Source: a virus
Taxonomy: Duplodnaviria; Caudoviricetes
Direction: 5' to 3' (one strand)
Virus record (IMG/VR): IMGVR_UViG_3300030376_007544
Coordinates: 1-64,000 of that record
DNA: 64,000 nt
The translations under genes and the position numbers were made by a program. The notes under the pieces are model-generated. The model saw only the letters and a program-made list of their open reading frames with translations. It ran no database searches and was not told where the DNA came from. Each line of letters starts with the position of its first letter. Within the stretch, counting starts at the first letter, position 1. Of this stretch, positions 8,736 to 60,943 are shown in pieces.

Positions 8736-8737
8736 AA

Positions 8738-30258: not shown

Positions 30259-31308
30259 ATGTCTAAAAGAGTATTACTAACAGGTGGGCTGGGATTTATT
30301 GGCTCACACACTGTAGAACATTGGCTAAAAAATACGGACTGGGAAATTGTGGTTTTAGATGCCTTACGTTTTTCAGGAAGGATTGAACGACTAACAGACA
30401 TTGAAGGCTACGATCCTTCACGAGTTAGTGTAGTTTGGCATGACTTAAGAGCGCCACTACATTCACAAGTACAAGACAAGATAGGCAAGATTGACTACAT
30501 CGTAAACATGGCGTCAGACTCCCATGTGGATAGATCAATTACACACCCTGTTGACTTTGTACAAAATAATGTTAGCCTAGCACTAAACATGCTAGAGTAT
30601 GCTAGAGAAGCTCAACCTGAAAAGTTTATTCAAGTTTCCACTGATGAAGTTTATGGACCTGCTCCAGCCGGACATAACCACACAGAAGGAGAGCCACATC
30701 GACCTTCTAATCCATATTCTGCATCAAAGTCGGCACAAGAAGCAATCGCCTACTCATACTGGAGAACTTTTGACGTACCAATCATAATCACAAACACAAT
30801 GAACAACTTTGGGGAACGACAACACCCAGAAAAGTATGTTCCAATGGTTATCAAAAAGGTACTATCAGGCGATCTTATAGAAATTCATAGCAAACCAAAC
30901 AAAGGTTGGGGAACTGATTTAGATCTGCACCGTGACTGGACAATTGGGTCAAGAGTATGGTTACATGCTAGAAACCACGCAGACGCTATTCAGTTTATCT
31001 TAGAAAATGTAGATGTAACTGATTATGTAGACAGTAATGAGACTCCAGACATTCAACGATTTAACGTTGCTGGAGAAAAAGAGATCAACAATCTAGAAAT
31101 AGTAAACATGATTGCAGGTATTATTGGAGAAGAACCCAATTACGAATTGGTTGACTTCCATTCAAGTCGCCCAGGTCACGATTTACGCTATTCACTAGAT
31201 GGATCAAAACTTGAGGAATACGGGTGGACTGCACCCATATCAGTACAAGAATCTTTTGAACGTACCGTTCAGTGGACAATGAGTCACCCAGAGTGGCTCG
31301 TGGAATAA
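30259..31308 (+). CDS. rfbB: dTDP-glucose 4,6-dehydratase
   Basis: TGGLGFIGS, SHVDRSI, STDEVYG, YSASK, RPGHDLRY. Confidence 0.92.
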   Translation: MSKRVLLTGGLGFIGSHTVEHWLKNTDWEIVVLDALRFSGRIERLTDIEGYDPSRVSVVWHDLRAPLHSQVQDKIGKIDYIVNMASDSHVDRSITHPVDFVQNNVSLALNMLEYAREAQPEKFIQVSTDEVYGPAPAGHNHTEGEPHRPSNPYSASKSAQEAIAYSYWRTFDVPIIITNTMNNFGERQHPEKYVPMVIKKVLSGDLIEIHSKPNKGWGTDLDLHRDWTIGSRVWLHARNHADAIQFILENVDVTDYVDSNETPDIQRFNVAGEKEINNLEIVNMIAGIIGEEPNYELVDFHSSRPGHDLRYSLDGSKLEEYGWTAPISVQESFERTVQWTMSHPEWLVE

Positions 31309-33250: not shown

Positions 33251-33330
33251 CTAAAACATAAGATAAAGTTTTATAAAAACTTGACAAACATAGAAAAGTA
33301 TGCTAATGTGGCATACAGGAGGTGAATTAT

Positions 33331-34269
33331 ATGAACAAATCACTAAATTACAAATTATATTACAACGAAAAATACACAGGGGCAAAACATGCCTTTGACA
33401 CAACACGCAAAAGCAAAAGCATTGCAGAAGCGTTAGGTGAGGACAACGTGGTAGACCATACTGCGTACATATCTACTTACGACTGGTTAGAGCTTGCTAA
33501 TCATTGGATTGCTCGCTCAATATCGCCCAGATACTATCGTGCCCTTCAAACAGGGGACAGCCCACTAAGTTCAAGCAATGGATTTTCTTGGGACAAAGGT
33601 ATTTGGGAGATGGCGTTAAACTCAACGGCTGGCGTTATGGCAGCGGTTGAATCTGCTTTAGCCTACAAAGTAGCAGGAAGCCTATCTTCAGGACTGCATC
33701 ACGCAGACACTGAAGGAGGAATGGGCTTCTGTACAGTCAATGGCCTTGCTGTGGCAGCAAACTGGATACTCAACGGGGTATTCCAAGTTGATAACGGCTT
33801 CGACAGCAAACTCAATGTCAATCATGTTACAATACTTGACTTTGACGCACACAATGGTGGTGGAACAGTACACTCGCTTAGAGCGTTAGAAATAGATGAC
33901 AGAGTAGATCAATACGATCTATCTACAAACACTTTTGACTCATACCGAGAAGACGACAACCACACAATTGCCATCGCAAACAATGACGATGAATACCTAA
34001 ACACAGTGGCCGTAATTTTGGAAACAATGAATCAAGATACTGACATCGTGTTGTACAATGCAGGCACAGATCCATACCCAGAAATATCACACGAGGCTCT
34101 AGCAGAAAGAGACAAACTCGTATTTGATTACTGTGTACAGAATGACATACCATGTGCATTCGTACTAGCAGGAGGGTACACTTGGGGACAAGAAATGGAT
34201 AGCCTTGTTCAAAGTCACGTAAACACTATCTATGCCGCAGAAGACGCATTAGTAGTAGAAAGGGTCTAA
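33331..34269 (+). CDS. Histone deacetylase-family (Zn-dependent) hydrolase
   Basis: GLHHA, GFC..N, LDFDAH.G.GT, YNAG.D, LAGGY. Confidence 0.9.
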   Translation: MNKSLNYKLYYNEKYTGAKHAFDTTRKSKSIAEALGEDNVVDHTAYISTYDWLELANHWIARSISPRYYRALQTGDSPLSSSNGFSWDKGIWEMALNSTAGVMAAVESALAYKVAGSLSSGLHHADTEGGMGFCTVNGLAVAANWILNGVFQVDNGFDSKLNVNHVTILDFDAHNGGGTVHSLRALEIDDRVDQYDLSTNTFDSYREDDNHTIAIANNDDEYLNTVAVILETMNQDTDIVLYNAGTDPYPEISHEALAERDKLVFDYCVQNDIPCAFVLAGGYTWGQEMDSLVQSHVNTIYAAEDALVVERV

Positions 34270-39739: not shown

Positions 39740-39847
39740 GTCAGTTCGCTGAAAAATGTGTCACGTTACCTCCCGGTACAGAAGTTCGTCGCCGAAAAGT
39801 TCCGAACAAGTCCCGACCTTGTGAAAAATTTCACTAAGTTTCGAGCT

Positions 39848-39999
39848 AAGTTACCCGGCAGTAACTTAAAAATGACAAGTTACCCGGGAGTAACTTATGA
39901 AAAATGACGAAAACTTAAGTTACCAGGAAGTAACTTACGAAAACTTAAGTTACCCGGCAGTAACTTATCAAAATTTACGAAGTTACCCGGCAGTAACTT
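39848..39999. repeat. Five palindromes AAGTTAC-N6-GTAACTT (sixth copy at 46166)
   Basis: At 39848, 39877, 39917, 39947, 39980. Confidence 0.9.
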
Positions 40000-40060
40000 A
40001 TCGAAGCTCGAACGCCCAGGGGTGATTCCTCCCCTTGCCAGTGGGGAGGAACTTTTGGTG

Positions 40061-40150
40061 TTACTTCTTCGGAGGGATTGCACCTCTTAAGATTATGAAC
40101 CAAACTGTGCAGAACCCTATTGGTCCTACTAGTGCGAATAATGTATCCAC
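40061..40150 (-). CDS. 29-aa hydrophobic peptide
   Basis: MDTLFALVGPIGFCTVWFIILRGAIPPKK with leader hairpin and downstream hairpin. Confidence 0.45.
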   Translation of the reverse strand: MDTLFALVGPIGFCTVWFIILRGAIPPKK

Positions 40151-40473
40151 TTTGTTTCTCTTTCTATGTGATTGTGACTTTCACAACCTCACACCTTCCA
40201 GGATAACTGCTAAAAACAGAAATACCAACCTCTAAAAAAGAAATTTCTAATATTTAAATTTCTTCTATTTGAGGTTGCAAATTAGACATTTATCAGATAC
40301 TCGACCTGTTAGATTTTGAGCAGCTTTTGAGTAGCAGTAAAAAACAGAAATACCAACCTCAAAACCTAAAAAAAGAAATATCAAGATTTCTTTTTTTAGA
40401 GGTTGGTATTCGCCTGGTGAATCTGTATCCTGGTATATGTGAGGTTGAAAGTCAACTCCACAGAAAGGAATAA

Positions 40474-40698
40474 GTGAGACACTTATTAACGTTTACTAGA
40501 ATGATCGCACAAGAGATCAGACTAGTAATCACAAAGGTGCTAGATCTTCTAGCAACTCCATATTGGAGAGTTTACAACAAACTACACAATAGGAGGTACA
40601 GAAGAGAAAACCCCGAAAGGTTTGATCGACTAACTGGCGAGATGTTAGTTTTTGATCCTAGATCAGAAACATACAAAAGACTAGAGGAACTAGTCTAA
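40474..40698 (+). CDS. Hypothetical protein
   Basis: GTG with AGGA RBS, followed by a hairpin. Confidence 0.6.
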   Translation: MRHLLTFTRMIAQEIRLVITKVLDLLATPYWRVYNKLHNRRYRRENPERFDRLTGEMLVFDPRSETYKRLEELV

Positions 40699-40896
40699 TC
40701 GCAGAGGAGGCGCCCCTCGCAAGAGGGGCAACTCTTCACTACATAGAACACCTAGACAACCCTAGAGCGTTCAGAGTCCCCTAGAGGGCTAGAATACCTC
40801 TCTGAAATATAGAGGGGGGAGGGGAACCTGGGCGCTTTTATCTAACTTTGTGAAAACTTTCACAAACTTACTTTGTGAAAACTTTCACAAACTTTT

Positions 40897-41119
40897 GTTA
40901 AGTTTGCTTAACTTTGTTCGTGAAGTTCGCCTAACTCGATAAGTTAAGTTTGCTTAACTTTGTTAGTTAAGTTCGCCTAACTTTTTCTGTTAAGTTTGCC
41001 TAACATAAAATGTTAAGTTTGCTTAACATAAAATGTTAAGTCAGCCTAACAAAAAATGTTAGCTTAGCCTAACATCAAATGTTAGCTTAGCCTAACATCG
41101 AATGTGAGGCATGCCTAAC
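40897..41119. repeat. Ten GTTARG-N4-CYTAAC palindromes at exact 23-bp period (DtxR/IdeR/MntR-like boxes)
   Basis: Starts at 40897, 40920 ... 41104; further clusters at 41957, 43796, 44749, 46188, 47273, 50396, 51288, 54548. Confidence 0.9.
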
Positions 41120-41626
41120 ACCCAAATTTCGCCAGTTTCGCCTAAGCGCTGGAATCCTACGGTCAAGCTTTTTAGGATTTTTTGAAAAAAAAATTGAAAA
41201 AAATTTGAAAAAAAAATTGAAAACATTTAACATTCAACACACAAAGGAACCTTATACCTAGTAAAGAACTAAAACAATTACCAAACCAAACCACATATAC
41301 CCAGTGCCACAGTAGACCAACATCACTAACATGACACGTTGGAACTACGCAACAGTACCTAAACTGATACTAAATGATCACTACTCCAACTCAACTAAGT
41401 TAAAAAAACATTGAGGAACTGCACCCGAAGTAAGCAACTCGCTAGCTTTCTCCCAGAAAACTAGGGGATTACACTCATCAACCATGTACATAACTGCAAT
41501 CAAACGTTCCATTATATCCATGAACATACTGTATCGCAACCCTTTCCCCAAAAATCCTCCAATTCCTGCTACAATAGTTCAACAAATACTTGACACTTCA
41601 AACGGGACTATATAAGATAGATAAAC

Positions 41627-41785
41627 ATGAACGAAAACAACGACGACCACGCTACAGAAGCTTCGCCAGTTACTGCGCCTAGACTGTCACGCTATACTTG
41701 TCATAAGTGTGATGTATCACTAGAGGCACTAACAGAGTCTGATGTTTGGTGTGGAAAAGGACATCGCATGGAGAGGATAGGCTAA
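41627..41785 (+). CDS. Small Zn-ribbon protein (52 aa)
   Basis: CHKC...CGKGH; follows TTGACA..TAAGAT promoter. Confidence 0.55.
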   Translation: MNENNDDHATEASPVTAPRLSRYTCHKCDVSLEALTESDVWCGKGHRMERIG

Positions 41786-41786
41786 A

Positions 41787-41930
41787 GTGGCTAGAAGAAA
41801 CGCATCGTTTGGAGCAGGAACTATCAGCAAAACCCAGCGTAAACGCAAAGGGATACACGCAAAGAGTAAGCACTCCAAACTCAAAGGTTCCAAGAACTAT
41901 AAGAAAAAGTACAGAGGACAGGGAAGATAG
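41787..41930 (+). CDS. Small basic phage protein ending KKYRGQGR
   Basis: MARRNASFGAG...YKKKYRGQGR; this C-terminal motif recurs in small basic phage proteins. Confidence 0.65.
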   Translation: MARRNASFGAGTISKTQRKRKGIHAKSKHSKLKGSKNYKKKYRGQGR

Positions 41931-42174
41931 TTAGGCCCGAACAAACGTTCGCCAATGTTAAGCACGCCTAACATTTGATGTTAGCTTAACCTAACACATC
42001 GAACAAACGTTCGCCACATACCGAACAAATGTTCGCCCATGTTCGTCACATTTTTGCTCGTTTTGCGAAGCCACCCGAATCCTACGGTCAACCTACGGTC
42101 AGCATAAAACAGAAAAACCCCACACCCGAAAGAAAAAGAAAAGGTGTGGGGTTAGACTGGAAAGAAAGGTACTT

Positions 42175-42438
42175 TTAAGGTAGCACCAACCTCTGTCCTA
42201 TTTGAAGATATGAACCTCCATTGAGTTCGCTTGCTTGATAGACTGCGTGTCCAGTATGACCTTCGCAGTGTTCATTTATTATGTCCCAGAGAGTGTCGCC
42301 ACTTTCAACTGTCACTTCACCGGATTGGCACTTGTAGTCAATTGCGTCATTTGCGCCCTTGACTATCCCTATTCCCAGTCCAGCAGTGATAGCAATTGCG
42401 CCTATCCCTCCAAGAGCTTTTTTAGTTAATGTGTTCAT
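42175..42438 (-). CDS. Membrane-anchored LysM-domain protein
   Basis: N-terminal TM; VESGDTLWDI...LN....LQIGQRLVLP. Confidence 0.85.
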   Translation of the reverse strand: MNTLTKKALGGIGAIAITAGLGIGIVKGANDAIDYKCQSGEVTVESGDTLWDIINEHCEGHTGHAVYQASELNGGSYLQIGQRLVLP

Positions 42439-42554
42439 AGGTATAACCTTAACACACTCCATGTCACATTGCAACACTTCTCAACAAAAAATAAAAAAAT
42501 AATTTCTTAGGTAAAAGGTTGCGTTCATGTTGCAACTCTGCTAACATGGTATTC

Positions 42555-42701
42555 ATGAGTTACAGATACGACATAAAACACGACTGGTACACTGATAAGT
42601 GGAACGTCGTTGATACTCGTAACAGAGACTGCACAGTCTCCACACATAGTTCTAGGGAAGAAGCACTAGCCGAAGCGCTAAAAAAGGATAGTTCTTCTTA
42701 A
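42555..42701 (+). CDS. Hypothetical small protein (leaderless)
   Basis: MSYRYDIK...SREEAL. Confidence 0.5.
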   Translation: MSYRYDIKHDWYTDKWNVVDTRNRDCTVSTHSSREEALAEALKKDSSS

Positions 42702-43286
42702 CTAAGGGGGATGCTGAGGCTACCCCCCTAAATCTTAGCCCCACTTCTGGTTTCACTCATTTCCCAGAGGTGGGGCTTTCTTCGTGTACCCCCAACATTC
42801 ACCCAAAGCTCAACACGAACATATGTTCGCATCGAGGTCAGGTCAGGCCGAGCAGGTCGAGAGGCCGATGTGTCCCGATTACATCGGGGCTTTATCAGAC
42901 CTAAGCTTAGCTCGAAGCTTAGCTTGACCAGCTCGAAGCTTAGCTGGATGCAGGAAAAGTTTGCCAAAAGGTTGCATTTTGAATCGTTTTGCGCTAAACT
43001 TCAGCAAACCCTACGGTCAGCCTACGGTCAAACCTGGGAAAAATCAACAAAAGCCAACGAAAAGTTGCAATTTTGTCCAGCTTTGCAGCAGCTTAGCAGC
43101 AGCTTAACCAGCTTAGCAGCAGCTCGGATGCAGCGATTCGAGGTCAACCTCGTGAAGTCCCGACTATATCGGGACGATATGACCTCACTTATTGGCCATC
43201 TCGCACTTGCATCCATATAAGCTCGCATACCAGGAAGAAACCCCAGACTAGGGAAATGAGTAAAACCTAGTCTGGGGTTATGAACT

Positions 43287-43379
43287 TTAGTGTCCTAAAA
43301 CATTTAGGACTGCTAAAGTTAGAAATAGGATTCCGAACATCCAATACATCGGAACCATTTCTTTTGAATACCAACTCAT
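43287..43379 (-). CDS. 30-aa hydrophobic peptide
   Basis: MSWYSKEMVPMYWMFGILFLTLAVLNVLGH; GGGAG RBS, own promoter and terminator. Confidence 0.5.
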   Translation of the reverse strand: MSWYSKEMVPMYWMFGILFLTLAVLNVLGH

Positions 43380-43459
43380 CTTTATCTCCCTTCGTTGATA
43401 CTTCATCTTATCAAACTCACAACTAATTGCAACCTTTAATTAAAATTATTTATTATTTA

Positions 43460-43732
43460 TTACCACTCACGCCAACTTCTGCCCCAACGTGGAGATGTTG
43501 ATCGTAAGTAGGTTGCGAGTTCAGGGTACTTCTCTTCTATAGCGCTAGGCAAGTAAACGTGCACTAGCAGATCAAGCGTCCTAACGAACCTACAGGGAGA
43601 ACCAAACCAAAACCTACTTCGTGGTTTCATTTCGTTCTTGATGTAGGCACGAACCCTATTGTGATCTATGTCCCAATAATCAACGCCAACTTTATCTGCG
43701 AAGATTCGTAGTCCTATGTAGTAGTTGTTCAT
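43460..43732 (-). CDS. Hypothetical protein, paralog of 59108-59389
   Basis: DYWDIDH...RFWFGSPC...LDLLVHVYLPS shared. Confidence 0.8.
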   Translation of the reverse strand: MNNYYIGLRIFADKVGVDYWDIDHNRVRAYIKNEMKPRSRFWFGSPCRFVRTLDLLVHVYLPSAIEEKYPELATYLRSTSPRWGRSWREW

Positions 43733-44374
43733 ATGTATGAGTATAGGTTGTCTACAACTATATTGCAAGTTTTATCTAAGAAATTGTTTGATATTATTAG
43801 CTCCACCTAACATGCCCGAATGTTAGGCTTGCTTAACATTGAGTGTAAGTTTAACATAACACAGGTCAGGTCAGGTCAGGTCGAGCAGCAACAGGCCAAA
43901 TCGAGGTCAAGATGTCCCGAATATATCGGGACTAATCGAGAGCTTAGCAGCTTAGCAGCAGCTCGAAGCTTAGCTCGATCCCAGCTCAGCCGAAGCTGGA
44001 AAACCCTACGGTCAGCCTTTTTTTGCTAAAATGTTGCAAAACGAAAGGCTTTGTGATATAATGGAATCAACTTTTGCCCATCCTAGCACAAACTTTGGCG
44101 AAGACCATCCCAAATCCAGCTCGACGCAGCAACTTTGATCGACTCGACTCAGTGAGTCCCGACTATAACGGGGGTCTACTAGGTCGATTTGACCAGCTTT
44201 GGCCCTTATCGCCACATCCCGTATACCAGGAAGAGATCCCAAATTAGATAAGGAAATAAAACTAATTTGGGATCAACTCCGTAAATTTATTGTGTCACTC
44301 ACTTCTTGAGTGTGAGGGATTTATGTTGCCACGATCCCTACTCGCCGAATCTGATTCAGATGGTTTAGTTACGC

Positions 44375-44566
44375 TTAAGCCTGAACTGTGTCGAGCCATG
44401 CCTGCGCTTCCTCGTGCGTCTTAAACCCCATTAGGATTTTTGACGCTTCTGGATAAAGCGCGTGGAAGGCTGATGGTTCATTGCTCTCAGGTCCCCATAG
44501 CCGAAGCCATCGAGCACTGTAGCGAACTACGCCTGTCTCTATATGATCACCCCATTTCCACTCATG
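44375..44566 (-). pseudogene. Possible frameshifted cassette ORF
   Basis: Coding-like frame (…FKTHEEAQAWL) lacks an in-frame start after its promoter; the nearest ATG is out of frame by one base. Confidence 0.35.
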
Positions 44567-44641
44567 TATCCAGGTTATCACGAAATTTCGCAAAACCACC
44601 CGGTTTTTTAAAAAAATTTAAATTTGCCACATTATGGGAAA

Positions 44642-44656
44642 TGAGAATGATTCTCA
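44642..44656. promoter_or_regulatory. Fur/Zur-family 7-1-7 box
   Basis: Perfect palindrome TGAGAAT-G-ATTCTCA next to Rex, LexA and DtxR-like boxes. Confidence 0.6.
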
Positions 44657-45387
44657 AAAGTTTGTGAAATGTTTCACTAAGTGACCGAACATTTGTTCCC
44701 CCGAACACTTGTTCCCCCCGAACATATGTTCCCCGAACACTTGTTCGTGTTAAGCATGCCTAACATTGAGTGTTAGCTTAACATAACAAAATAAAAAAAA
44801 TAAAAAAATTTCAAGAAAAGGTTGTTTTTTTTGAAAGGCTGCACAAAAAATCGACAGGTCAAAATCGACCTCAGCGTGTCCCGAATATATCGGGGGTCTA
44901 CCAGGTCGCTGGAAACGCTACGGTCAAGCTACGGCCAAGCTTTCGAGCTGAAAAGGTTGCGAAAGCAAAAAACTTCTGCTAAAATGAAAAGAAATCTTCA
45001 AAAGTTTAGCGAAAGCCTGGGGAAAAACAACCAAAAGCGGCAAAAAGTTGAAAAAAAGCAGCTTCGCAGCGCAGCTTCGGGTCATCCAGCAGCCACATCC
45101 CGCATAAGTCCCGACTATATCGGGGGCCTCTAAGGTCCACGTATCCTGGATCGGATCATCCTTTTCACGAGCTTCACTCAGTGTGTTCATGTGACTACTT
45201 TTTAGTCTGGATCCCGATTTCACTCAGCGTGTTCATATGACTACTTTTTATTCTGGATCCAGAATCGTATTCATGGGATTTCCCACAATGTGGTTAATTT
45301 TGAAACTTTGGTAAAAAAGTTTCGAATGTCACAGGCATTAGATAGATTGAATACATGGAAAAGAAACAAGGGAAGGAAGGTGAAAAA

Positions 45388-45657
45388 ATGAGAACTCTTG
45401 AGAACGGAGCAACCGCTCTTGTGTGGAGTGTGCAACACAATGCTGAAGGCAGTGGGTATCGCAACTACACAGGCGTTGTTCTGGCTCATGCGCCCCATCT
45501 GATGGATCCATATGCAACATGGACTGTCGCTTCAGATGATGGGATCACGTTCTGGTGTAATGCAGGGCATTACTACTCCAGTCGTGAAGATGCACATCAA
45601 GACTTCGTAGTGCGTGCCACTAACGAAACAGACTTGATGTCTCACGCAGTAGCCTAA
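45388..45657 (+). CDS. Hypothetical protein
   Basis: GAAGGT RBS; GHYY...A..DF..R pattern. Confidence 0.65.
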   Translation: MRTLENGATALVWSVQHNAEGSGYRNYTGVVLAHAPHLMDPYATWTVASDDGITFWCNAGHYYSSREDAHQDFVVRATNETDLMSHAVA

Positions 45658-45774
45658 AGCGAGTCAGACTCGGAGCCTGATGGGGGCTTGGCAACAGAAC
45701 CCCATCACCCCAACAACTTGATAAGGAAGGAAAAAGATCCCCCACTCCCTAAGGTGGGGGATTTTTATTTACCC

Positions 45775-45876
45775 CAGATCCAGATCCAGATCCAGATCCA
45801 GATCCGAGCCTGATCCTGATCCGAGTCAGATCCAGATCCAGATCCAGATTGGAGTCAGATCCAGATCCAGATCCAT
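45775..45876 (+). repeat. (CAGATC)n hexamer tandem repeat
   Basis: CAGATCCAGATCCAGATC... with a few degenerate units. Confidence 0.9.
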
Positions 45877-46392
45877 CCCCGAAACTCTTTCAAACTGGGC
45901 AACTTTGGAAATCGCTACGGTCAAGCTCCGGTCAAACTTTTTGCATCCTTCTGATCCGCCCTCGATCCAACCCTGCAACCTGGAATACCCCCGATTATAT
46001 CGGGACTTTCTGAGAAGTCGAGGGTCTAAAGCTGCATCCGAGCTGCATCCGAGCTGGAGCTTAGCTACTGCGTGAGTCCCGTTATATTCGGGACTATACG
46101 ATAGGTTTTGACCTGACCTGACCTGCTGCTCGACCTGACCTGACCTGATGACCATCCCCCGAACTAAGTTACTCAGTGGTAACTTGTGTTAGGCACGCTT
46201 AACACTAAATGTTAGGTGAACTTAACATATGTTAGGTATGCTTAACATTCAATGTTAGGCACGCTTAACATACTCCCCGAATAATGTTAGCTTCACCTAA
46301 CACTCAATGTTAGGGCTACTTAACGAAATAAATAATCTAAAGAATTCATCAAAAACACCCGGAGTGTCACACATAGATGATAGATTGAACTT

Positions 46393-46704
46393 ATGAGTAG
46401 TTTGGAGGTGAAAGAAAATATGAGTCATGTACTTCTGATTGAAGGCGCTGATGGCGATTTAGTTGATGCACATACAGTGTGTAGCGACAGTTGTCACCGG
46501 AGCCTAGCAGTAGAGTTAGACGTGCCCTATGGAGGGTGGTTCGGTTGTATCGAACTGGAGTTTAACGACTACTGTCAGTCTTGTGGGACGCTGATTCATG
46601 GGGTTGAAGGACCCCATGAGTTCCATAACACTGTATGTGAAGATACCACTTGTGAACTTTGTTCTGATGAACGTAAGTTGCAACTGGAACTCGCTACAGT
46701 TTAA
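46393..46704 (+). CDS. Cys/His-rich hypothetical protein
   Basis: CSDSC, CQSCG, C....C..C. Confidence 0.65.
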   Translation: MSSLEVKENMSHVLLIEGADGDLVDAHTVCSDSCHRSLAVELDVPYGGWFGCIELEFNDYCQSCGTLIHGVEGPHEFHNTVCEDTTCELCSDERKLQLELATV

Positions 46705-47432
46705 GGCTTCAATCCAATCCTGAATAAGATTCGGACTCACACCCCTAGAGTTGGCACCAGAATAGGGGCAACACAAACAACAACACATTCAACGAAACAT
46801 TGAAATACAACTAAACAACTCATGGATATTCCCCGATTTACTTAGGTGAGTCGGGGAACTTTCCTGGAATCCGAGAAAGCTCGGAATTGCTACGGTCAAG
46901 TTATTCTGGTCAAACTGCAGCCAATCATCCGAACTCAAGCAGCCAATCGATTCGAACTCAAAAAGCCCCGTATATATCGGGACTAAATAAGAAGCTGAAT
47001 GAAATCGTGAGCTTAGCTGCTGCTGCGAGCTGAGCTTAGCCGCTAAAAAGTGACGAAAAGTGACGAAAGTGACGAAAAGTTCGAAACTTTTTTACCATCC
47101 TATCAAAAGTTTTTGAAAATTGCAACTTTTTGCCGAAAAACCAGGGAGCTTAGCCGCTGAATCAGCCGCTACACGCTGCAAATCGAAGTCGATTCAGCAG
47201 GTAAGTCCCGTAATAATCGGGACATATTAAGGTTGGCCTGACCTGACCTGCCATCCCAGCAGCCATCCAAGTGTTAGGTATGCTTAACACGAAATGTTAG
47301 GTACGCTTAACATTAGAACCGAACAAGTGTTCGTTTATGTCATTTATGTTACAGAAAAAGAAATTTAAGAAAATCTTGCGTAAAACTTGCAATTGTCACA
47401 CCCACCACCTAAGATGGTGTTTACATAGATGA

Positions 47433-47482
47433 GGCACCTGCCAAGTAGGTGAAGAGTCTGGGTAAGAGTCCCAGAAGGTGCC
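47433..47482 (+). ncRNA. Conserved three-way-junction leader RNA, copy 1
   Basis: P1 GGCACCT/AGGTGCC around GCC-loop-GGT-GAAGAG-TCTGGG-TAAGAGT-CCCAGA. Confidence 0.6.
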
Positions 47483-47514
47483 ACATTGTAAACACCTATA
47501 GGAAAGAAAAACAT

Positions 47515-47760
47515 ATGCTTACACGTATGCATTTCGACACTGTAGCGAATAGCTTAAGGCTTAGGCTTGAAGCACTTATTGACAACCTCAATAGAGCGCC
47601 TCAAATCCACATGGAAGCCGTTAAGGTATGGCACGCAATCGCTTGCGATATGCGCACCATGTTCGCTGGAAGTAACCCTAGATTTGATGAAGAAAAGTTT
47701 AACGACGCTTCTGGAATCACTTCAGTGGAATACTTTCTCCCCAGTGTCAAAACCGACTAA
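47515..47760 (+). CDS. Hypothetical phage protein
   Basis: MLTRMHF..VA...NPRFD..KF pattern. Confidence 0.7.
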   Translation: MLTRMHFDTVANSLRLRLEALIDNLNRAPQIHMEAVKVWHAIACDMRTMFAGSNPRFDEEKFNDASGITSVEYFLPSVKTD

Positions 47761-48302
47761 GAGTCGGAGTCCGGCGGAACTCGGCAACAGAATCCGCCCA
47801 AATAAATAGCCAACCTAAACAAATACTCCGCTGAAAGGGCGGGGTATTTGCCTGGAATCGAGAAAGTTCGAAAACCCTACGGTCAAGCTACGGTCAAGCT
47901 TTTGAGCTGGTCGGCAGGTCAAAACTCAAGTCGATCCCAATCAGTCCCGAATATAACTGGACTATCTAACCGTTCTTTTGTTTAATTCGAGCTTAAGGAC
48001 CACCCAGGCAAAGGTTCCCGACTTGTCTGACGGGAACCTTTTTTAATCCGGTATTTAGTTTGGAACCTTATCGCTTTTTGGGCGGTATACAACTTTTCAG
48101 TATGTAAAACCACACCATAGCAAATCCTACTGGACCTACTAGAGCAAATACAATTTCCATGTATTTCTTTCTGAGTGATTAAGTACTTCTTAACCTCTCA
48201 CCTTCAATACTAGGTGCAAATATCATAAATTGCAACCTTAAAACAAAAAAAATAAAAAATAACCCCTGATCCGAAGATCAAGGGCTACTTTTGTTATTAG
48301 TT

Positions 48303-48566
48303 TTAGCCTATTCCTGCGAACTTATTAAATTCAGCCTCTTCAGCGATTGTTAGTTCTCTAGGTTGTTGGTTGTGGATTTCTAACCCCCACATTGTTCGGT
48401 GCATATGCTCAATCTCTTTAGCCTGTCTGTAGTCTTTACAAAACAGTTGTAGTATTTGACAATCAGTTTGATCGCCAGTTGGAGATTGAAACCATAAGTG
48501 TAGAGCATTATCTCTTACTTCGGTTCCGCATAAAGCTCCCTTTGTTGTTATTGTTGGTTCTATCAT
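48303..48566 (-). CDS. Hypothetical protein
   Basis: ORF with promoter and terminator. Confidence 0.65.
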   Translation of the reverse strand: MIEPTITTKGALCGTEVRDNALHLWFQSPTGDQTDCQILQLFCKDYRQAKEIEHMHRTMWGLEIHNQQPRELTIAEEAEFNKFAGIG

Positions 48567-48706
48567 GTATTCCCATCTAATCCGTTAGTACTTCTAACTT
48601 CATAACTTAATCGTATCATGACCCGAAACAGATTGCAACCCCAATAGCAAAAAATTATCTAAAATAATTCTTGCTTTTGTCACACACCTATGTTAAGGTA
48701 ATAAAC

Positions 48707-48859
48707 ATGATAAACAAACTAAAAGACAACGGACATAAGTGGAAGGCACTTGATGGAGATGTTCGGTGTGTTGTGTGTGATGCACGGCCATCGGGAGCAT
48801 CTGCCAAAAAGTTGTGCATACGCTTTGATCTGGAGAGAATGCAAGGCTCTAAAATATGA
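48707..48859 (+). CDS. Small Zn-binding protein
   Basis: H.W.....RCVVCD...C; leaderless. Confidence 0.5.
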   Translation: MINKLKDNGHKWKALDGDVRCVVCDARPSGASAKKLCIRFDLERMQGSKI

Positions 48860-48957
48860 TTACAATTCTAGTCACATTTGGAGTTGGAGTGATAGTTGGA
48901 ATACTTATCGCAACTTACTTAGAGCATGGGGCAATACTTTTGCCCGATGACGAGTAG
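48856..48957 (+). CDS. 33-aa single-TM peptide
   Basis: MITILVTFGVGVIVGILIATYLEH..., ATGA overlap. Confidence 0.5.
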   Translation: MITILVTFGVGVIVGILIATYLEHGAILLPDDE

Positions 48958-49229
48958 CAAACTCTACGGTCAGACTATTTCGCAAAAAGATTGAGTGTCC
49001 TGACGGGTACATAAGGACCAACGGCAGTTGGCGGTATTGTTGGGGTGTGGTAGGAATACTGCACTAAAGCGACACACTCTAGGGAATCGAGCCTACTTTC
49101 GGGGACAGATAGCAATATGTCCAGTCCGATAGGGCTAGCCGTACCAAGCGGTTGAGTACTCCTTAATCCCTAACCCCACCTTCGTGCTGAGGGTGGGGTA
49201 TTCTTTTACCCCACCCCCTACGGTCAGCA

Positions 49230-49481
49230 CTACCGTCGGTTGTAGCGCCTTCGGTTAAACGCCCGACATGTACGGCAGTTAGTCGCCAACTTCTCTTCGC
49301 CCTGATAGACGTAAGTGAATTGCTCCACTTTCAACCATTGACGACAAGTGCGACATATGTACATCTCGCCCTTCGCAGCTCGTTTAATGGCTTCAAGATC
49401 AGTGTGGTCGTGGTTGTCTTCCATGACACTGGCACGATCCATTCTTGCCTTTAACTTAGTCGCTTGAAAACGATCTTTCAT
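49230..49481 (-). CDS. Zn-finger protein
   Basis: CRTC...CRTC; AGGAGG RBS. Confidence 0.7.
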   Translation of the reverse strand: MKDRFQATKLKARMDRASVMEDNHDHTDLEAIKRAAKGEMYICRTCRQWLKVEQFTYVYQGEEKLATNCRTCRAFNRRRYNRR

Positions 49482-49678
49482 AATTCACCTCCTTAGGTAA
49501 TTTGTCTTACACTACATATAGGCACCAAAGTCGTAAAAAGCGGACATAAAAATAAAAATAATTTATTTTGCTTAAAGGGTTGCATTCGGGCCACAAAGAT
49601 GCTACGCTGGTAATTACCAAGTTGGAAGTACCAATTTGGCTCAAGTCGGAAGTACTGACTTGATTAAGGAGATATTCG

Positions 49679-49822
49679 ATGCAAAGAGAATTGAACTGCA
49701 AATGTGTTAGATGTGACAAATTGTACACAACTAGCAAACTAGCAGGAATAGATCGCAAAGGTTTCTGCATTAACTGTTGGCAACACCAACGAAATATATG
49801 GAGACTCGTAAGATCAACATAA
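49679..49822 (+). CDS. Small Zn-finger protein (47 aa)
   Basis: CVRC...CINC; AGGAG RBS. Confidence 0.6.
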   Translation: MQRELNCKCVRCDKLYTTSKLAGIDRKGFCINCWQHQRNIWRLVRST

Positions 49823-50084
49823 ACATAAACTAAAACATAAAGTTTCGTGAAGAAGTTTTCTCATTTTCCTTCTTCATGAAACATTCCCAAAAAGACCCAC
49901 ACTTTTTCATTTTCTTTCGAGTGTGGGTCTTTTTCTGTCCAGCTACATAATACAAAATCAAAAAAATACTAAGAGTTGTATTTATATCGGGACTTTCTTA
50001 CTTACCCTTCCTTCTATTACACCTCTATGGTGTCCCTATGGTGTCCCTACCCAGGCAGAAGGGGAGCCGAAGCCCCCCTCCAAA

Positions 50085-50279
50085 TTAAGACGCTTTTTTA
50101 GCGTTGAGTTTTTTGAAGTAAGGAGTGACATCATCAACCACTTTTTCACCGTAGTGAATTTCAGTGGCGATTACCATGTCTCCACAGTCCCTTATTTCTT
50201 GGGCTTTTTCTTCGAGCTCATATTCACATACGATTTCCGAAGTGCCTTCGTTATAAGCAATTAATAAGAATTCTCTCAT
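50085..50279 (-). CDS. Hypothetical protein
   Basis: ORF with promoter and terminator. Confidence 0.55.
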   Translation of the reverse strand: MREFLLIAYNEGTSEIVCEYELEEKAQEIRDCGDMVIATEIHYGEKVVDDVTPYFKKLNAKKAS

Positions 50280-50730
50280 TGTTTTCTTTCTATCTGATTG
50301 AGACTCTCTCAACCCGATAACTTAACTCTAACAGGGTTTGAGAAAAAACACAACCTTTTTTCAAAAAAAAATAAAATAATTTTTTCCTCTATTTTGTTAG
50401 GTATGCTTAACATCAAATGTTAGCTACGCCTAACACTTTTACTGGTCGAGTGGCCTGAAATTGAAAAATCAAGCTGACTTTGTGAAACTTTTCACAAACT
50501 ATCGAGGAGTTTGTCGATATTTGGCCTCAAAAAGTCCCGATTATATCGGGGGCCTCTGAGGTCGAAAACTCTACGGTCAGCTCACGGTCAGCTTGCCCGC
50601 CCACCCGTAAAGTCCCGTATATATCGGGGCTTAAAGACCTCGAAACTCGAACGGCCACTCAAAAGCTCGTATACCAGGCGAAATCCACCGCACTCATAAT
50701 GCGGTGGAAGCCTCCTTCGGTTAAGAAGTT

Positions 50731-51111
50731 TTACCGTCTTGGTTGTGTAACTTTGACGGAAGAAACTTCTTTGATGTTGATCGCTTTACCAACAAGATCG
50801 CTATCTAGCCACCCTGCTTCAACCGCACCGTCAATAAGTTTCATCTCACCGACTCGCTTGGTAACACGTTGGTGTTGCCCTTGCGGAAGAATCGCTTTCA
50901 GAACATCGTTGTCAATAGATCGTCTGTTTTGATTCACTATTGCAACTTTCGTTCCGTCTGCGAGGGTTACGCTTTCAACTTCTAACGCTCGGAAAGCAAG
51001 TTCTGCTTCCTCAACCGCTTCCCTTGCTTCTGCAAGAGCGCTCCGTGCTTCCACGACTCGCTGTGCGGTTAGTTCGCTGATCTTGCGATCATTCACTAAT
51101 AAAGTATCCAT
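50731..51111 (-). CDS. Hypothetical protein, paralog of 57023-57406
   Basis: ESVTLADGTKVAIV.QNRRSIDN...LPQGQHQRVTKRVG shared. Confidence 0.8.
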   Translation of the reverse strand: MDTLLVNDRKISELTAQRVVEARSALAEAREAVEEAELAFRALEVESVTLADGTKVAIVNQNRRSIDNDVLKAILPQGQHQRVTKRVGEMKLIDGAVEAGWLDSDLVGKAINIKEVSSVKVTQPRR

Positions 51112-51132
51112 GTCGGACCCTTTCTCTAATTC

Positions 51133-51185
51133 AGAAGCCTATCTGGGACTCTCACCCTGACTCTTCACCTAATGGCTAGACTCCT
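51133..51185 (-). ncRNA. Conserved three-way-junction leader RNA, copy 2
   Basis: Same core as 47433 with a different but still paired P1 (AGGAGTCTA/TAGGCTTCT). Confidence 0.6.
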
Positions 51186-51656
51186 GTTTTCTTTGATATA
51201 TCCAGGTTACCATCGTTGTGAGACAAAACCACCCGGTTTTTCAAAAAAATTTCAAATAATTTTTTTCGTAACATAAATGACATATTTGTTAAGTTCGCCT
51301 AACAGGCCATGTTCACGCTTGCGAACAGATTATGTTAAGTGCACCTAACAAACGATGTTAAGCAGAGCTAACAAATAAAAAAATAAAAAAAATAAAAAAA
51401 ACTTGACAAAAGGTTGTTTTTGTGAAAGCAGCGTGCAGGTCAAAATCGAGGTCAGTATGTCCCGATTATTACGGGACTCTCTTCCTTCTATTAAGCCTCT
51501 ATGGTGTCCCTACCGCATGACCTGCAGCAGCGCTGACCAGTACCCGCCCAGGAAGAAGCCCTAGCAGGAAAATGAGTGAAACCTGCTAGGGCTTTCGGAC
51601 ATCGCATCAGTAGTTAGCAAAACTAGGTTACTAATCAGTAGTGCGATCCTCCGATT

Positions 51657-51794
51657 TTATGAGGAGAGATGTTTCGCTAGTTTGGGGTGCTCCCTTAGCG
51701 TCTTCTCTCTTACTTCACGCTCATGATGCCTGTGCATCGTTTTGGCGAGCGTAGCGTATAAGAGCGCTCCTATTATGTAAAGTGCTAATGTCAT
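51657..51794 (-). CDS. 45-aa peptide with N-terminal TM
   Basis: MTLALYIIGALLYATLAK...; AAAGG RBS. Confidence 0.5.
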   Translation of the reverse strand: MTLALYIIGALLYATLAKTMHRHHEREVREKTLREHPKLAKHLSS

Positions 51795-52016
51795 TGTTTA
51801 CCTTTCGTTTTAACGACAAGTACCACCGTATCAAAGATTCAACTACATTGCAACACCGAAAAGCTAAAAAATTAAATAATTATTTTTACGCTAAATACTT
51901 GCAATTGTCTCACGGGCCCTGTAGCATGGAATGTATAAAGAAAAGCGAGTAGTCCGCCGTAAGGACTGGTTCGAGTGAAAGCCTCGAAGGACTGCTCCCA
52001 AGTAGAAAGGTAAAGC

Positions 52017-52352
52017 ATGAAACTAATCACTGCTGATCAACGTAAACGGCTTCTGGCAAACCACGAAGCCAATCTCGAAGGAGAAGGAGGGATCGACCAC
52101 AAACCTGTAGTGAAAATATTCACGGCAGGGGCAGGGGCGACATGGTTGCTTACAGAGATGGACGAAGATGGAATCTTCTTCGGCCTATGTGATCTTGGTC
52201 TGGGGTTTCCAGAACTAGGTTATGTCTCTCAAAGTGAATTTGATTCACTTCCTGCAAATATGTTCCTCGAACGTGATGCATGGTTTACGGCTACGAAAAC
52301 CCTTAGCGAGTACGCTTCGGAAGCCCGTGGCCTGCGACGAATCGCTGCTTAA
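52017..52352 (+). CDS. DUF2958-family protein
   Basis: PVVKIF...ATWLLTE...FGLCDLGLGFPELGYVS. Confidence 0.85.
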   Translation: MKLITADQRKRLLANHEANLEGEGGIDHKPVVKIFTAGAGATWLLTEMDEDGIFFGLCDLGLGFPELGYVSQSEFDSLPANMFLERDAWFTATKTLSEYASEARGLRRIAA

Positions 52353-52992
52353 TCGGATGCCTCCGGCCTTCTGGTCGGGGGTATTTCCCTGGGTGGCCAT
52401 AAATAAAAATCGACTACCCGTGAAGTCCCGATATAGTCGGGGCATCCTGACCTCGACCTGACCTGACCTGACCAACCAGGAAAAATCCCCCAACACTTTC
52501 GTGCTGAGGGATGAACCTACACGTTATCCGTGACAGAGATCATGCATGTGGCGGAGATCTTCGTCCCAATCCCACATCATCTCCATAAGGTCTTCCTTAC
52601 TCATGAGTGGTTCTGCTTCGACCCACTCTCCGTCTTCATTTCTGGTCCATTCAGTCATTTTATCTCCGATCTGAATCTACAAGCTTCCACTTTGAAGGCC
52701 TGATATATCCAGATTACCATGACCACTTCATAATTGCAACCCCAAATAAAAATTAATTAATATTTTTAGCAGCCGTTGAAAATAGCAGCCACTGAAAATG
52801 CAGCAGCAGGTCAGGTCGAGTGCAGGTCAGATCAAACACAGGTCAGGTCTGGTCAGGTCTGGTCACCCCGTAAAGCCCCGATTTATACGGGGCTAAATAA
52901 GTAAGACCACTCAGGATTTCTCCCCCTCACTCTAGGCCACCCGTAGGTGGCGAGGCCCGTTGGTCTACGGGGTGGTCTACTTACTTCGACAA

Positions 52993-53142
52993 TTAGACGA
53001 TTTCGATTTCGAATTCGCCGTTGTCGTACTTCTTGTCGCATCCGTTTCCTCGAAAGCTTCCACAGAAGACTAATCCTTCTTCGGTTGCTATCGCATCGAG
53101 TGACGAGCAGAAGATTCCACAATTATCACATTTTACTGGCAT
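52993..53142 (-). CDS. Small Zn-finger protein
   Basis: CDNC...C......C; AAGGA RBS. Confidence 0.55.
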   Translation of the reverse strand: MPVKCDNCGIFCSSLDAIATEEGLVFCGSFRGNGCDKKYDNGEFEIEIV

Positions 53143-53392
53143 ACTGAATTCCTTTCGGTAGTTAATTATTTCAGTACTTCCAGGATACCACCGTTTGACC
53201 AGCATTGCAACATCAAATGCAAAAAAAAAGAATTTTAATTTCTTTGCAAAAACCGGGTGGTTTTGTCTCATAGTCGTGGTATCGTTCTATTTGTTGGTAA
53301 AGTACCGACATTACATACTAGCCGTAATTCTCGAATGAGTGGAAAGCCCCTGACAGTAGAAGCCTGTAGGTTCGAGTGGGAAAGGAATAGAA

Positions 53393-53761
53393 ATGTTTAC
53401 ACGAACAGATAGTGTTTGTATAGATATTAGTCAAGACGGACAAGTGCCTGTTCTAGGTTACGCTTATTCGTTCTCGAAAGCTCGTGACGAGTGGTTTGGC
53501 TACGTCGCTGTCAGAGAGGGTATGCTCTCTTCTGAAATGCGATACGTAGTTAAACAAATGCACCGTATCACGAAGTACGGAGAGGACGTATGGGAAGTAA
53601 TCGAAGGAACTACTGTCGAAGGTACCGATCCTGTAGAATCAGGAATACGGAACAACCGACAAAGTGCACTCGTTACACTGTCGAAATTGTCTTTAGATTT
53701 ATTTCGGGGTAACGACTATGTTGATTACGGAACCGTAATGAACATCCCACCACTTGGCTAA
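53393..53761 (+). CDS. Hypothetical protein
   Basis: ORF with structured leader, RBS and terminator. Confidence 0.65.
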   Translation: MFTRTDSVCIDISQDGQVPVLGYAYSFSKARDEWFGYVAVREGMLSSEMRYVVKQMHRITKYGEDVWEVIEGTTVEGTDPVESGIRNNRQSALVTLSKLSLDLFRGNDYVDYGTVMNIPPLG

Positions 53762-53974
53762 CCGAAGGGAATCCACCGAACTAAACACTCGGTGGATTTT
53801 GCCTGGTATGCGAGATTTTGTCAATTTCTGACCAGCAGGTCAGGTCATGCAGCAGGTCAGGTCAGGTCGAAGGTCGAGTAGTCCCGTATCTATCGGGACT
53901 CTTCTCCTTCTATTAGACTGCTATGGTGTCCCTATGGCGTACCTACGCTATGCAGCTCGCCCCAACCCCAACCA

Positions 53975-54251
53975 GGCGAAAAGCCCACCGAACTTCGGTG
54001 GATCGGTTCTTCACTCTCTACTTGCGAAGGGTATCTTGTTTGCCATTTAGGTTCGCCCTCCACCTTGCAAGGTTTTTGAGGAGTCCGCACCGTACCTTTC
54101 GGTTCTTTTGATGGTTTCCGTTTCCACTTCTGGTAGGTTTTTTGGTAAAAAGAACCTCTTTCCACGAAGTTCGGTGGGCCCTTAGTTGCAACCCAACCGA
54201 ATGGATATTCAGTTGTCAATTCGGGGTTTCCCCCTGCCACCCTTTCGGGCT
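53975..54251 (-). ncRNA. Candidate ~280-nt structured RNA cassette
   Basis: TTGCTT-17-TAAGAT promoter, three GAAA-capped hairpins, terminator. Confidence 0.45.
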
Positions 54252-54647
54252 ACGCCCATCTTAACATAAGGGTGAGACAAAAGCAACCTTTGTCCAACAA
54301 TTTCTTAAATAATTTTTTATTCCCAGTAGCGGCAAAATAGCGGCAAAATAGCAGCGAAAATCTGTCGTTTTTGAAAGTTTTTGACAAAAAACGGGAGACC
54401 AGCGGGCAGGCCAGTAGAAAATTTGGCAAAACTAATCAAAAATGACAGTTTTTGCTCAGCTCAGGCAGAGCTAAAAGGAGCAAAAGATGAAGGAGGTCAG
54501 GTCAAAGTTTACCTGAGGTCTAATAGCCCCGACTATATCGGGACCCGGTTAGGTATGCTTAACTCTTTTTGTTAGGTTGGCTTAACATCACTCTAAAAGG
54601 ACATGCAGAAACCCCGACCCTTTCGGGCCGGAGTTCGCTGCTGGGAT

Positions 54648-60040: not shown

Positions 60041-60943
60041 ATGGCACATATGCTAACTAGAAATAAAACATGGGATCAGGGCTTATCGGCCACTGATGCT
60101 GCGTTAGATGCTGATGCTCTCTTTGAGCCACAACTAACAGGTACTATTCTTCCTAACGGAACTGTAGATGATTCGTCATTTACTATTTACCGTGATATGG
60201 CAGACGGTACTCAAGTTGTTCTCAATGCTGGCGTTAAAGAAGGCTACTATGCTGGATCATACCAATCACTTCTGAACACGGCTGAGGCCATGTTCCCTGA
60301 AAGTGTTACTGGTATGCAGACATGGGATAATGGTGCAGTTCTAGTGTTCACTCAAGATATAGAAGATACATTCTCTTTCGGTGACGGTGACTCTTTAACT
60401 AAACACATTATGTACACTGCTAGTCTTAACAGCACCTACAAAACAAAAGCAATCGGTTTTACGTTCCGACCTTTCTGTACTAACCAAGAGGGACAAGGTA
60501 CTCTCCAAATTGCACAGAAGCGAACTCGTAACCACGATGGCTTACTGTTCCAAAAAGCTCAGATAATGTCAAGTTATGCTGATGCTTTTGATAGGTTCAT
60601 CACCAATGCAACTATGCTCAAAGGTTTACCGATGACCAGTGGTCTACGGAACACAATCCTTGACGAAGTTGCTCCACTGTTGGACTTTGATCCAGACGCT
60701 AACACGAAAGCAATAAATGCTGCGCAGAAGCGTCGTGATGGAATCATGTACTACTACGAGGAAGAAGCAAATACCTTCGGGCATAACGCTTACTCTCTCT
60801 ATCAAGCAGTACAGTCTTACGAGTACCACATCGGTACTAAAGGTAAGAGCAAACAACTGAAACAAGTTAATGTTGTATCCGATCCGGCAAAGGCTCAAAG
60901 CCTTACCATTCGGACTGGCGACATGCTACTTGCGTCAGTCTAA
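60041..60943 (+). CDS. DUF932/DUF945-like protein
   Basis: FCTNQ, NAY.LYQAV..YE.H motifs. Confidence 0.7.
   Translation: MAHMLTRNKTWDQGLSATDAALDADALFEPQLTGTILPNGTVDDSSFTIYRDMADGTQVVLNAGVKEGYYAGSYQSLLNTAEAMFPESVTGMQTWDNGAVLVFTQDIEDTFSFGDGDSLTKHIMYTASLNSTYKTKAIGFTFRPFCTNQEGQGTLQIAQKRTRNHDGLLFQKAQIMSSYADAFDRFITNATMLKGLPMTSGLRNTILDEVAPLLDFDPDANTKAINAAQKRRDGIMYYYEEEANTFGHNAYSLYQAVQSYEYHIGTKGKSKQLKQVNVVSDPAKAQSLTIRTGDMLLASV

Follow-up and report, generated by a model that had tools for sequence, protein, structure and literature searches.

Arrays of LexA-, Rex- and other regulator-type boxes in an early gene block of a large phage record, and their recurrence in dissimilar phages

The DNA analyzed here, referred to below as the window, is a stretch of 64,000 nucleotides, positions 1-64,000 in a linear IMG/VR virus record of the Caudoviricetes (IMGVR_UViG_3300030376_007544, label G000; 128,360 bp, 42% GC, completeness estimate 87%). 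Between 39.8 and 54.6 kb, the spacers of a block of small genes carry arrays of palindromic boxes of five types, two of which fit the operators of the bacterial regulators LexA and Rex, neither encoded by the phage. The phage probably reads, or soaks up, the regulators of its host. The observation is solid and wider than was known to the first-pass annotation of this DNA, whose interpretation, that the boxes are sites for host repressors which replicating phage DNA could titrate, was partly right.

The boxes were counted by exact pattern over the full record, and the chance level was taken from 300 dinucleotide-preserving shuffles of the 15-kb region. The pattern CGAAC-N4-GTTC occurs nine times (41938, 42000, 42022, 42816, 44686, 44702, 44719, 44734, and 47320), TTGTGAA-N4-TTCACWA five times (39819, 40848, 40873, 44662, and 50480), TGAGAAT-N-ATTCTCA once (44642), and AAGTTAC-N6-GTAACTT six times (39848, 39877, 39917, 39947, 39980, and 46166), which reproduces the numbers first reported for these four types. 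The fifth type, called here the G box (GTTAR-N6-YTAAC), is represented by 27 copies in the region, 21 under the stricter pattern GTTARG-N4-CYTAAC and 30 with one degenerate position; its array is real, but the originally reported number of about 33 is reached only with degenerate copies. The 39.8-54.6 kb block holds every site save one G-type box, and the other 113 kb of the record contain 0, 0, 0, 0, and 1 of the five types, respectively. The shuffled means are 0.12, 0, 0, 0, and 0.09 (LexA, Rex, Fur, AAGTTAC, and G types, respectively). The clusters along the block, and the tract adjoining one of them, are as follows.

39819-39999, cluster 1: one Rex-type box (39819-39836), then five AAGTTAC-N6-GTAACTT palindromes spaced 29-40 bp.
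40848-41119, cluster 2: two identical Rex-type boxes (40848 and 40873), then ten G boxes (40897-41119) with an exact 23-bp period.
41170-41235: AT-rich tract with four direct TTGAAAAAAA-like 11-12-mers, immediately past the ten-box array.
41938-42035, cluster 3: one LexA box, two G boxes, and two LexA boxes, in this order.
42816-42829: lone perfect LexA-type palindrome CGAACATATGTTCG.
43822-43860: one G box and a second, degenerate one; the minus-strand promoter TTGCAA-17-TATACT (43768-43740) lies 55-95 bp downstream of them.
44642-44787, cluster 4: one Fur-type 7-1-7 box, one Rex-type box, four LexA-type boxes (15-17 bp spacing), and two G boxes (23 bp).
46166-46324: six G boxes together with an AAGTTAC-type box, the group stopping about 35-70 bp short of the promoter and leaderless start of the downstream gene 46393-46704.
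47273-47333: two G boxes plus a LexA-type box; the -35 element of the promoter TTGCAA-17-TAAGAT (47387-47415) follows 55 bp downstream.
50396-50497: two G boxes upstream of an A-tract and the minus-strand promoter of the gene 50085-50312, and one Rex-type box.
51288-51372: three G boxes, with an A-tract and a TTGACA element after them.
54548-54586, final cluster: two G boxes (23 bp).

The LexA and Rex labels proposed in the first-pass annotation hold by sequence. Compared with the Gram-positive/actinobacterial SOS box CGAAC-N4-GTTCG and its extended form CGAACRNRYGTTCG, all nine LexA-type sites have CGAAC-N4-GTTC, six are full 14-bp CGAAC-N4-GTTCG palindromes, and seven extend to GAACA-N2-TGTTC. 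The Rex operator consensus is TTGTGAANNNNTTCACAA, an 18-bp TTGTGAA-N4-TTCACAA (PMC5355995), which is fitted by all five Rex-type sites, three being perfect and two ending in TTCACTA. All five also satisfy the CRP/GlxR-type pattern TGTGA-N6-TCACA, and sequence alone cannot separate the two. For the Fur label, one perfect 7-1-7 palindrome, TGAGAAT-G-ATTCTCA, is present and matches TGATAAT-N-ATTATCA at 6 of 7 positions per half, but it is weak alone, since a stretch of 15 kb should contain about one perfect 7-1-7 palindrome of some kind by chance. Its sole extra support is the location within the 44.6-kb cluster, where four box types sit back to back at 44642-44787, exactly as first described.

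Domain searches detected no LexA, Rex, DtxR, FUR, or TetR_N DNA-binding domain across the 128-kb record (about 87% complete), so that the absence of these regulators, originally claimed for the window, holds for the whole record. The host of G000 is predicted to be an actinobacterium because of two WhiB genes, the affinities of the SNF2 helicase, whose nearest matches are in Arthrobacter, Gordonia, and Microbacterium phages, and the leaderless gene starts. Leaderless mRNAs are typical of Actinobacteria, and several cassette genes of the block begin 6-7 nt past a TAnnnT hexamer, at 43734 and 44565 on the minus strand and at 45355 and 46393 on the plus strand. We further infer a low-GC freshwater actinobacterium. 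Among the sampled Actinomycetota genomes, which include genomes of 1.3-1.5 Mb, 50 of 51 contained LexA and 241 of 301 contained Rex; the former tally includes the unpublished genomes G025, G008, and G055, and the latter the unpublished genomes G275, G095, G089, G246, G008, G055, G233, G025, G127, and G181. The objection that the predicted host might lack these regulators is thus not borne out at the phylum level. In addition, G000 encodes a full-length, cellular-type RecA (20535-21518; Pfam RecA, E = 4e-134). Since activated RecA triggers the self-cleavage of LexA, this gene is notable beside nine LexA boxes.

A search for the same arrays in other phage contigs, suggested in the first-pass annotation, was successful, and they were found even in phages without detectable protein similarity to G000. 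The arrays span phages of 26-59% GC. Tandem LexA boxes were observed in more than 120 viral loci and paired Rex boxes in 30, many of the latter from 90-200 kb contigs, and G pairs at exactly 23 bp are present in eight other viral contigs. LexA and G boxes are combined in seven of 80 inspected loci, namely L114 and also L142, L144, L168, L181, L196, and L206, of which the loci after L114 have no protein similarity to G000 by BLAST; one of the seven also has Rex boxes. Rex and G boxes alternate in L278 and L285. In three phages (G003, G004, and G005), three to five G boxes occupy the divergent region directly upstream of whiB, and the complete phage G001 (38.6 kb) has LexA-like boxes in a run that abuts a G pair. 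These phages share with G000 only WhiB, SSB, a nuclease, and lysis genes. Such recurrence of box arrays in phages without similar proteins argues for conserved host proteins, not for the own repressor of one phage. We think that the boxes are real protein-docking sites. For the LexA and Rex boxes, the binder is probably the host's own protein, given that the consensus is exact, that the phage has no gene for either regulator, and that such arrays are also present in phages showing no detectable similarity to it.

Two contigs in this set are extreme in box density. At 3300-5200 of L285 (176-kb contig, 34% GC), nine Rex-type boxes and eleven copies of GTTAG-N6-CTAAC alternate within about 4 kb, and the L274 contig (26% GC) has 13 Rex-type boxes in 7 kb.

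Of the labels first attached to the two remaining box types, DtxR/IdeR for the G box is not supported as stated, and TetR for AAGTTAC has no basis. We know of no common operator consensus for the TetR family, the record has no TetR_N domain, and the six AAGTTAC boxes take the frame of the G box, GTTA-N8-TAAC. The iron box of DtxR and IdeR consists of two overlapping TTAGG-N4-CCTAA units. Among the 36 sites with the common frame (30 G boxes and six AAGTTAC boxes), none has a complete TTAGG-N4-CCTAA and none is the 19-bp iron box TTAGGTTAGGCTAACCTAA (PMC7174319, PMC4598388), and the 23-bp iteration is iteron-like. The G box is asymmetric, with the half GTTAGG paired with GTTAAG, GTTAGC, or GTTAAC, and the spacing from box to box is exactly 23 bp. 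Its flanks lengthen the box to ATGTTA...TAACAT, and two boxes 23 bp apart also read TTAACA-N18-TAACAT, a promoter-like pair. The same asymmetry is seen in most boxes of G003 and G004, the exception being G002 with two symmetric boxes. The sole G-type box of G000 outside the block (68621) lies within a 229-aa HTH-like open reading frame (ORF) adjoining the second whiB gene.

Cellular counterparts of the G box were also identified. The site TGTTAGG-N4-CCTAACA is present in 13 of 401 sampled Actinomycetota genomes. Its tandem pairs are situated 20-40 bp upstream of a gene for the binding protein of an ABC importer in two genomes (G069 and G390), while single sites precede the same kind of importer gene in G219 and a panE-like gene in G320 and G189. 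The importer belongs to SBP_bac_6/SBP_bac_1, and the Fe3+, aminoethylphosphonate, and thiamine classes are all below the NCBIfam cut-offs. No regulator gene adjoins the cellular G sites in the contexts inspected (G069/G390, G219, and G218), a hint that a global factor may act on them in trans. A search of 185,579 species genomes with the paired G pattern yielded seven mixed matches, two of them in Actinocorallia. The Actinocorallia matches were rejected as a clue to the G-box protein, being the operator of a TetR gene with another half-site, TGTTAAT.

The G boxes raise the question of replication. Cluster 2 combines a fixed-period direct array (40897-41119) with an adjacent AT-rich tract (41170-41235), the arrangement of an iteron origin. 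The segment 40.85-41.24 kb, at the end of the replication module, can accordingly be proposed as a candidate replication origin, in which the G boxes would be the iterons and the tract the DNA-unwinding element. The exact 23-bp period, the conserved asymmetry, and the neighboring tract of AT-rich 11-12-mers, which would make the ten-box array an origin, also suit an explanation by phage-encoded binders. In this case the G, AAGTTAC, and GTCCCG sites (the latter are described below) would be iterons or operators of the phage's own initiator or regulators, and the resemblance to host operators would be partly coincidental. Candidate DNA-binding proteins do exist in G000: winged-helix/MarR-like (75585-75872), RHH-like (67767-68093), HTH-like (68096-68785), and ParB_N-like (8738-9526) proteins and the two WhiB proteins. 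Two repeats of the block are peculiar to G000, and the cluster of LexA-like and G boxes in G001 comes after an ORF whose N-terminus, read by eye, resembles phage replication-organiser proteins. However, blastp and phmmer found no homologs of the candidate proteins, bar WhiB, in other G-box phages; G-type sites are located upstream of transporter genes in cellular genomes; and the exact LexA and Rex consensus boxes are left unexplained. We consider it unlikely that the phage itself encodes the binders of these three kinds of site.

The setting of the boxes bears on what binding by host regulators would do. The block (39.7-55 kb) is a hypervariable set of about 15 single-gene early cassettes. 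Its longest ORF has at most 126 aa, and its small genes, about 15 in number, are on both strands, each with its own TTGCAA-N17-TAnnnT (sigma-A-type) promoter, an A-rich upstream tract, and a terminator; the spacers between them are 0.3-0.9 kb long. The G boxes at 43822, 46188-46324, 47273, 50396, and 51288 each have an A-tract and a promoter directly downstream; the promoter at 43768-43740 drives a leaderless gene on the minus strand. Cluster 4 occupies a divergent control region between the minus-strand gene 44375-44565 and a plus-strand unit that starts past an A-tract. The earlier description of the clusters as lying behind terminators rather than over promoters is therefore correct for those at 39.8, 40.85, and 41.9 kb but not for most of the G pairs and the 44.6-kb cluster, which are upstream of promoters or divergent. 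For instance, cluster 1 is placed between the stop of the SNF2 helicase gene (39739) and a terminator (40025-40052) with no credible promoter nearby, and cluster 3 is flanked by the stop of a plus-strand gene (41930) and a bidirectional terminator near 42120.

We tentatively suggest, giving it somewhat less than an even chance, that the boxes are docking sites for host regulators that act in cis on the early cassettes and the candidate origin. The CGAAC-N4-GTTCG boxes would be bound by LexA, the TTGTGAA-N4-TTCACAA boxes by Rex or possibly by a CRP-type protein, and the asymmetric GTTAGG-N4-CTTAAC boxes, probably together with the AAGTTAC boxes, by another protein. In an undamaged, NADH-poor host, these proteins would occupy the phage DNA, where the cassette promoters and the candidate origin (40.85-41.24 kb) would be damped or insulated by them. 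They could be released through DNA damage, phage replication (the phage supplies RecA), or a rise in NADH. Early expression and replication would thereby be coupled to the state of the host, as with the Spo0A boxes on phi29.

Relatives of G000 provide a direct comparison at one position of the block. Two contigs, G308 and G309, have 73-75% nucleotide identity to G000 in the SNF2 gene. The stretch right after this gene holds one Rex box and five AAGTTAC boxes in G000, seven perfect LexA boxes in G308, and two LexA boxes together with at least nine DnaA boxes in G309. Therefore the position of the array is kept and the box type changes. Both contigs end inside the post-SNF2 arrays, with G/T-rich or CT-rich low-complexity runs there. 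A more distant record, G310 (128,618 bp, IMG/VR class complete), matches part of SNF2 with 36% amino-acid identity in tblastx. At 101.55-101.77 kb (locus L260, 88,000-107,999) it carries five LexA boxes in tandem beside about eight DnaA boxes, and pairs of DnaA boxes lie at other cassettes (94.2 and 100.4 kb). It also has repeated words of its own, AACTACTAGAAAGG and GGGGTGTAACAC.

Several of these observations weigh against regulation in cis. LexA and Rex repressors usually act at the -35/-10 core, but no LexA- or Rex-type box overlaps the -35 or -10 element of any clearly recognizable promoter in the block; by promoter prediction, which is approximate, the LexA boxes are found either in promoter-less spacer or at a distance of 55-170 bp upstream of a promoter. 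Clusters 1-3 (39.8, 40.85, and 41.9 kb) have no credible promoter alongside, tandem arrays of four to ten sites exceed the need of one promoter, and the seven perfect LexA boxes of G308 sit in a G/T-rich, promoter-less spacer. Finally, the differing box type at a homologous position suggests that any bound protein will do.

That the arrays are tandem, promoter-less, and interchangeable favors a decoy acting in trans, an explanation to which we assign a low probability. During entry and replication of the phage DNA, its near-consensus sites would draw LexA, Rex, and the G-box protein (and DnaA in relatives) off the host operators. The outcome, itself improbable in our estimate, would be derepression of the SOS, redox, and transport regulons, or a block of host replication initiation, without any phage protein. 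The sites are indeed at or near consensus and in tandem, several arrays are in promoter-less spacer, and several regulator types stand side by side. Moreover, the box type is interchangeable at the post-SNF2 position (Rex and AAGTTAC in G000, LexA in G308, LexA and DnaA in G309), the arrays enlarge via local tandem duplication, and very small host cells would contain few regulator molecules to bind. On the other hand, nine LexA and five Rex sites per genome are modest before replication, the consistent placement of G boxes upstream of promoters is needless for a pure decoy, and every array is in the early cassette block rather than genome-wide. It is similarly doubtful that, as a general strategy, large Gram-positive/actinobacterial phages use evolvable arrays to sponge several host global regulators at once, with box types swapped to match the host. 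We see little chance, too, that such a sponge covers LexA, Rex, the G-box protein, and DnaA and reprograms the SOS, redox, transport, and replication-initiation circuits via DNA alone. Sensing of the host state, listed in the first-pass annotation as an alternative to titration, is at least as likely as the sponge.

The DnaA boxes of the relatives recall yet another possibility, that host proteins on untranslated repeats make the incoming genome pause, or tether it, with the result that the early cassettes are expressed first. T5-like phages have repeat-rich untranslated regions whose injection-stop site contains eight DnaA boxes (bioRxiv 10.1101/866236), and the relatives G309 and G310 have clusters of DnaA boxes beside LexA arrays. 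However, G000 has no DnaA-box cluster. The arrays are spread across 15 kb among many transcription units, not gathered at one stop site, and those of G310 are 27-34 kb from the end of the record. We regard this role in DNA entry or anchoring as very improbable, and docking of host regulators in cis is the reading that we retain.

Two further repeats were found within the block.

42872-54544: GTCCCG-N7-CGGGAC, a 19-bp palindrome with a conserved A-N-TATAT center, about 16-18 copies (13 on the forward and 3 on the reverse strand at no more than 2 mismatches).
41157-50579: the word CTACGGTCA, 14 copies, all on the plus strand whatever the gene orientation, recurring every ~1 kb.

Both are specific to G000. 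The GTCCCG palindrome is confined to the 39.8-54.6 kb block, and other IMG/VR contigs contained no arrays of it, only single, chance-level matches. Its hairpins were considered as a small RNA family and rejected, as the 18 folded copies share only the hairpin and Rfam gave nothing above threshold; the palindrome is probably one more protein site rather than RNA. Copies of the word CTACGGTCA are often paired in direct orientation at an 11-bp period, an arrangement known from the sites of OmpR/PhoB-type response regulators. These words mark diverged tandem copies of a module of about 1 kb. The grammar of the spacers repeats every ~1 kb, and therefore the block arose through tandem duplication of a module that has since diverged.

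Recognizable features among the products of the block are limited to DUF2958, a LysM domain, and a weak endonuclease-VII/Lar-like match. The 15-kb region had no blastn match in 50,697 GenBank phage records, and box arrays are absent at 72 loci anchored on the DUF2958 cassette gene and at one locus anchored on the downstream 211-aa gene. The spacers also contain hexamer microsatellites, (CAGATC)n and (CAGGTC)n, at 43860-43890, 45766-45875, 46110-46150, and 52800-52860. Good sigma-A-type promoters were noticed within the 'gene-free' spacers at 42972-43000, 44034-44062, and 44957-44985, each followed by about 200-270 nt without a convincing ORF and terminating in a CCAGGAAGA-like word and a terminator. 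These promoter-led, ORF-poor stretches may be non-coding transcripts.

Elsewhere, G000 encodes SSB, a primase-helicase, a Rad52-like protein, a Cas4-like nuclease, and several DNA methylases, and neither an integrase nor a repressor was seen among the ORFs scanned. A PAPS-reductase-like gene adjoins the ParB_N-like gene (7560-9526). Other genes of the window are histone-deacetylase-like (33322-34269), a GDP-mannose dehydratase (30259-31308), and two of the DUF932 family (5754-6791 and 60041-60943).

Exploitation of single host regulators by phages, such as Spo0A on phi29 or LexA on temperate phages, is already known. A multi-regulator early block recurring across dissimilar phages of 26-59% GC has not been described as a class in the literature searched. 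If the boxes act in cis, they show how uncultured phages sense the damage, redox, and nutrient state of hosts not yet grown; if they act in trans, they represent a protein-free takeover of host regulation. Either way, they offer a handle for host prediction, since the box repertoire should match the host regulators. The arrays may also explain the breaks of metagenomic assemblies at the post-SNF2/array region of such phages.

Among the closest known cases is that of the lytic phages phi29 and Nf, where Spo0A, a host global regulator, represses early promoters and blocks origins through Spo0A boxes on the phage DNA (PMC2731898). There as here, the phage DNA bears sites for a host regulator that it does not encode, and phi29 infection is tied to the host state. 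The difference is that phi29 and Nf have few sites for one regulator, overlapping promoters or origins, whereas the sites in G000 are predicted, of several types, in tandem, and mostly outside core promoters. LexA boxes are known on temperate phages and mobile elements, for example CTXphi, the tum gene of coliphage 186, and GIL01. GIL01 is covered in PMC9700832. These elements use the same SOS-box consensus to exploit host LexA, but with one or two boxes over a switch promoter, in contrast to nine boxes in arrays with other regulator types in G000.

The untranslated regions of T5-like phages contain direct repeats, palindromes, and DnaA boxes and are conserved while the neighboring genes vary (bioRxiv 10.1101/866236). 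Their likeness to the G000 block lies in gene-free stretches of the early region packed with repeats, palindromes, and boxes for host proteins. The T5 regions are, however, in the terminal repeat and centered on DnaA, whereas the boxes of G000 are of the LexA, Rex, and G types. Titration has a chromosomal precedent in the E. coli datA locus, which titrates DnaA. The theory of transcription-factor decoys is treated in PMC11549397. Clusters of high-affinity sites in such systems lower the amount of free DNA-binding protein, which for G000 is a proposed reading only. To our knowledge, no phage-borne multi-regulator decoy has been shown experimentally.

Finally, the G boxes resemble the iteron origin of lambda (ori) and multi-site operators such as the CIR sites of phiC31 and the stoperators of mycobacteriophages. 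Common features are fixed-period imperfect palindromes beside an AT-rich tract and the scattering of the same site in early intergenic regions. In those systems the binder is known and phage-encoded, whereas the G box recurs in phages that share only WhiB as a DNA-binding protein.

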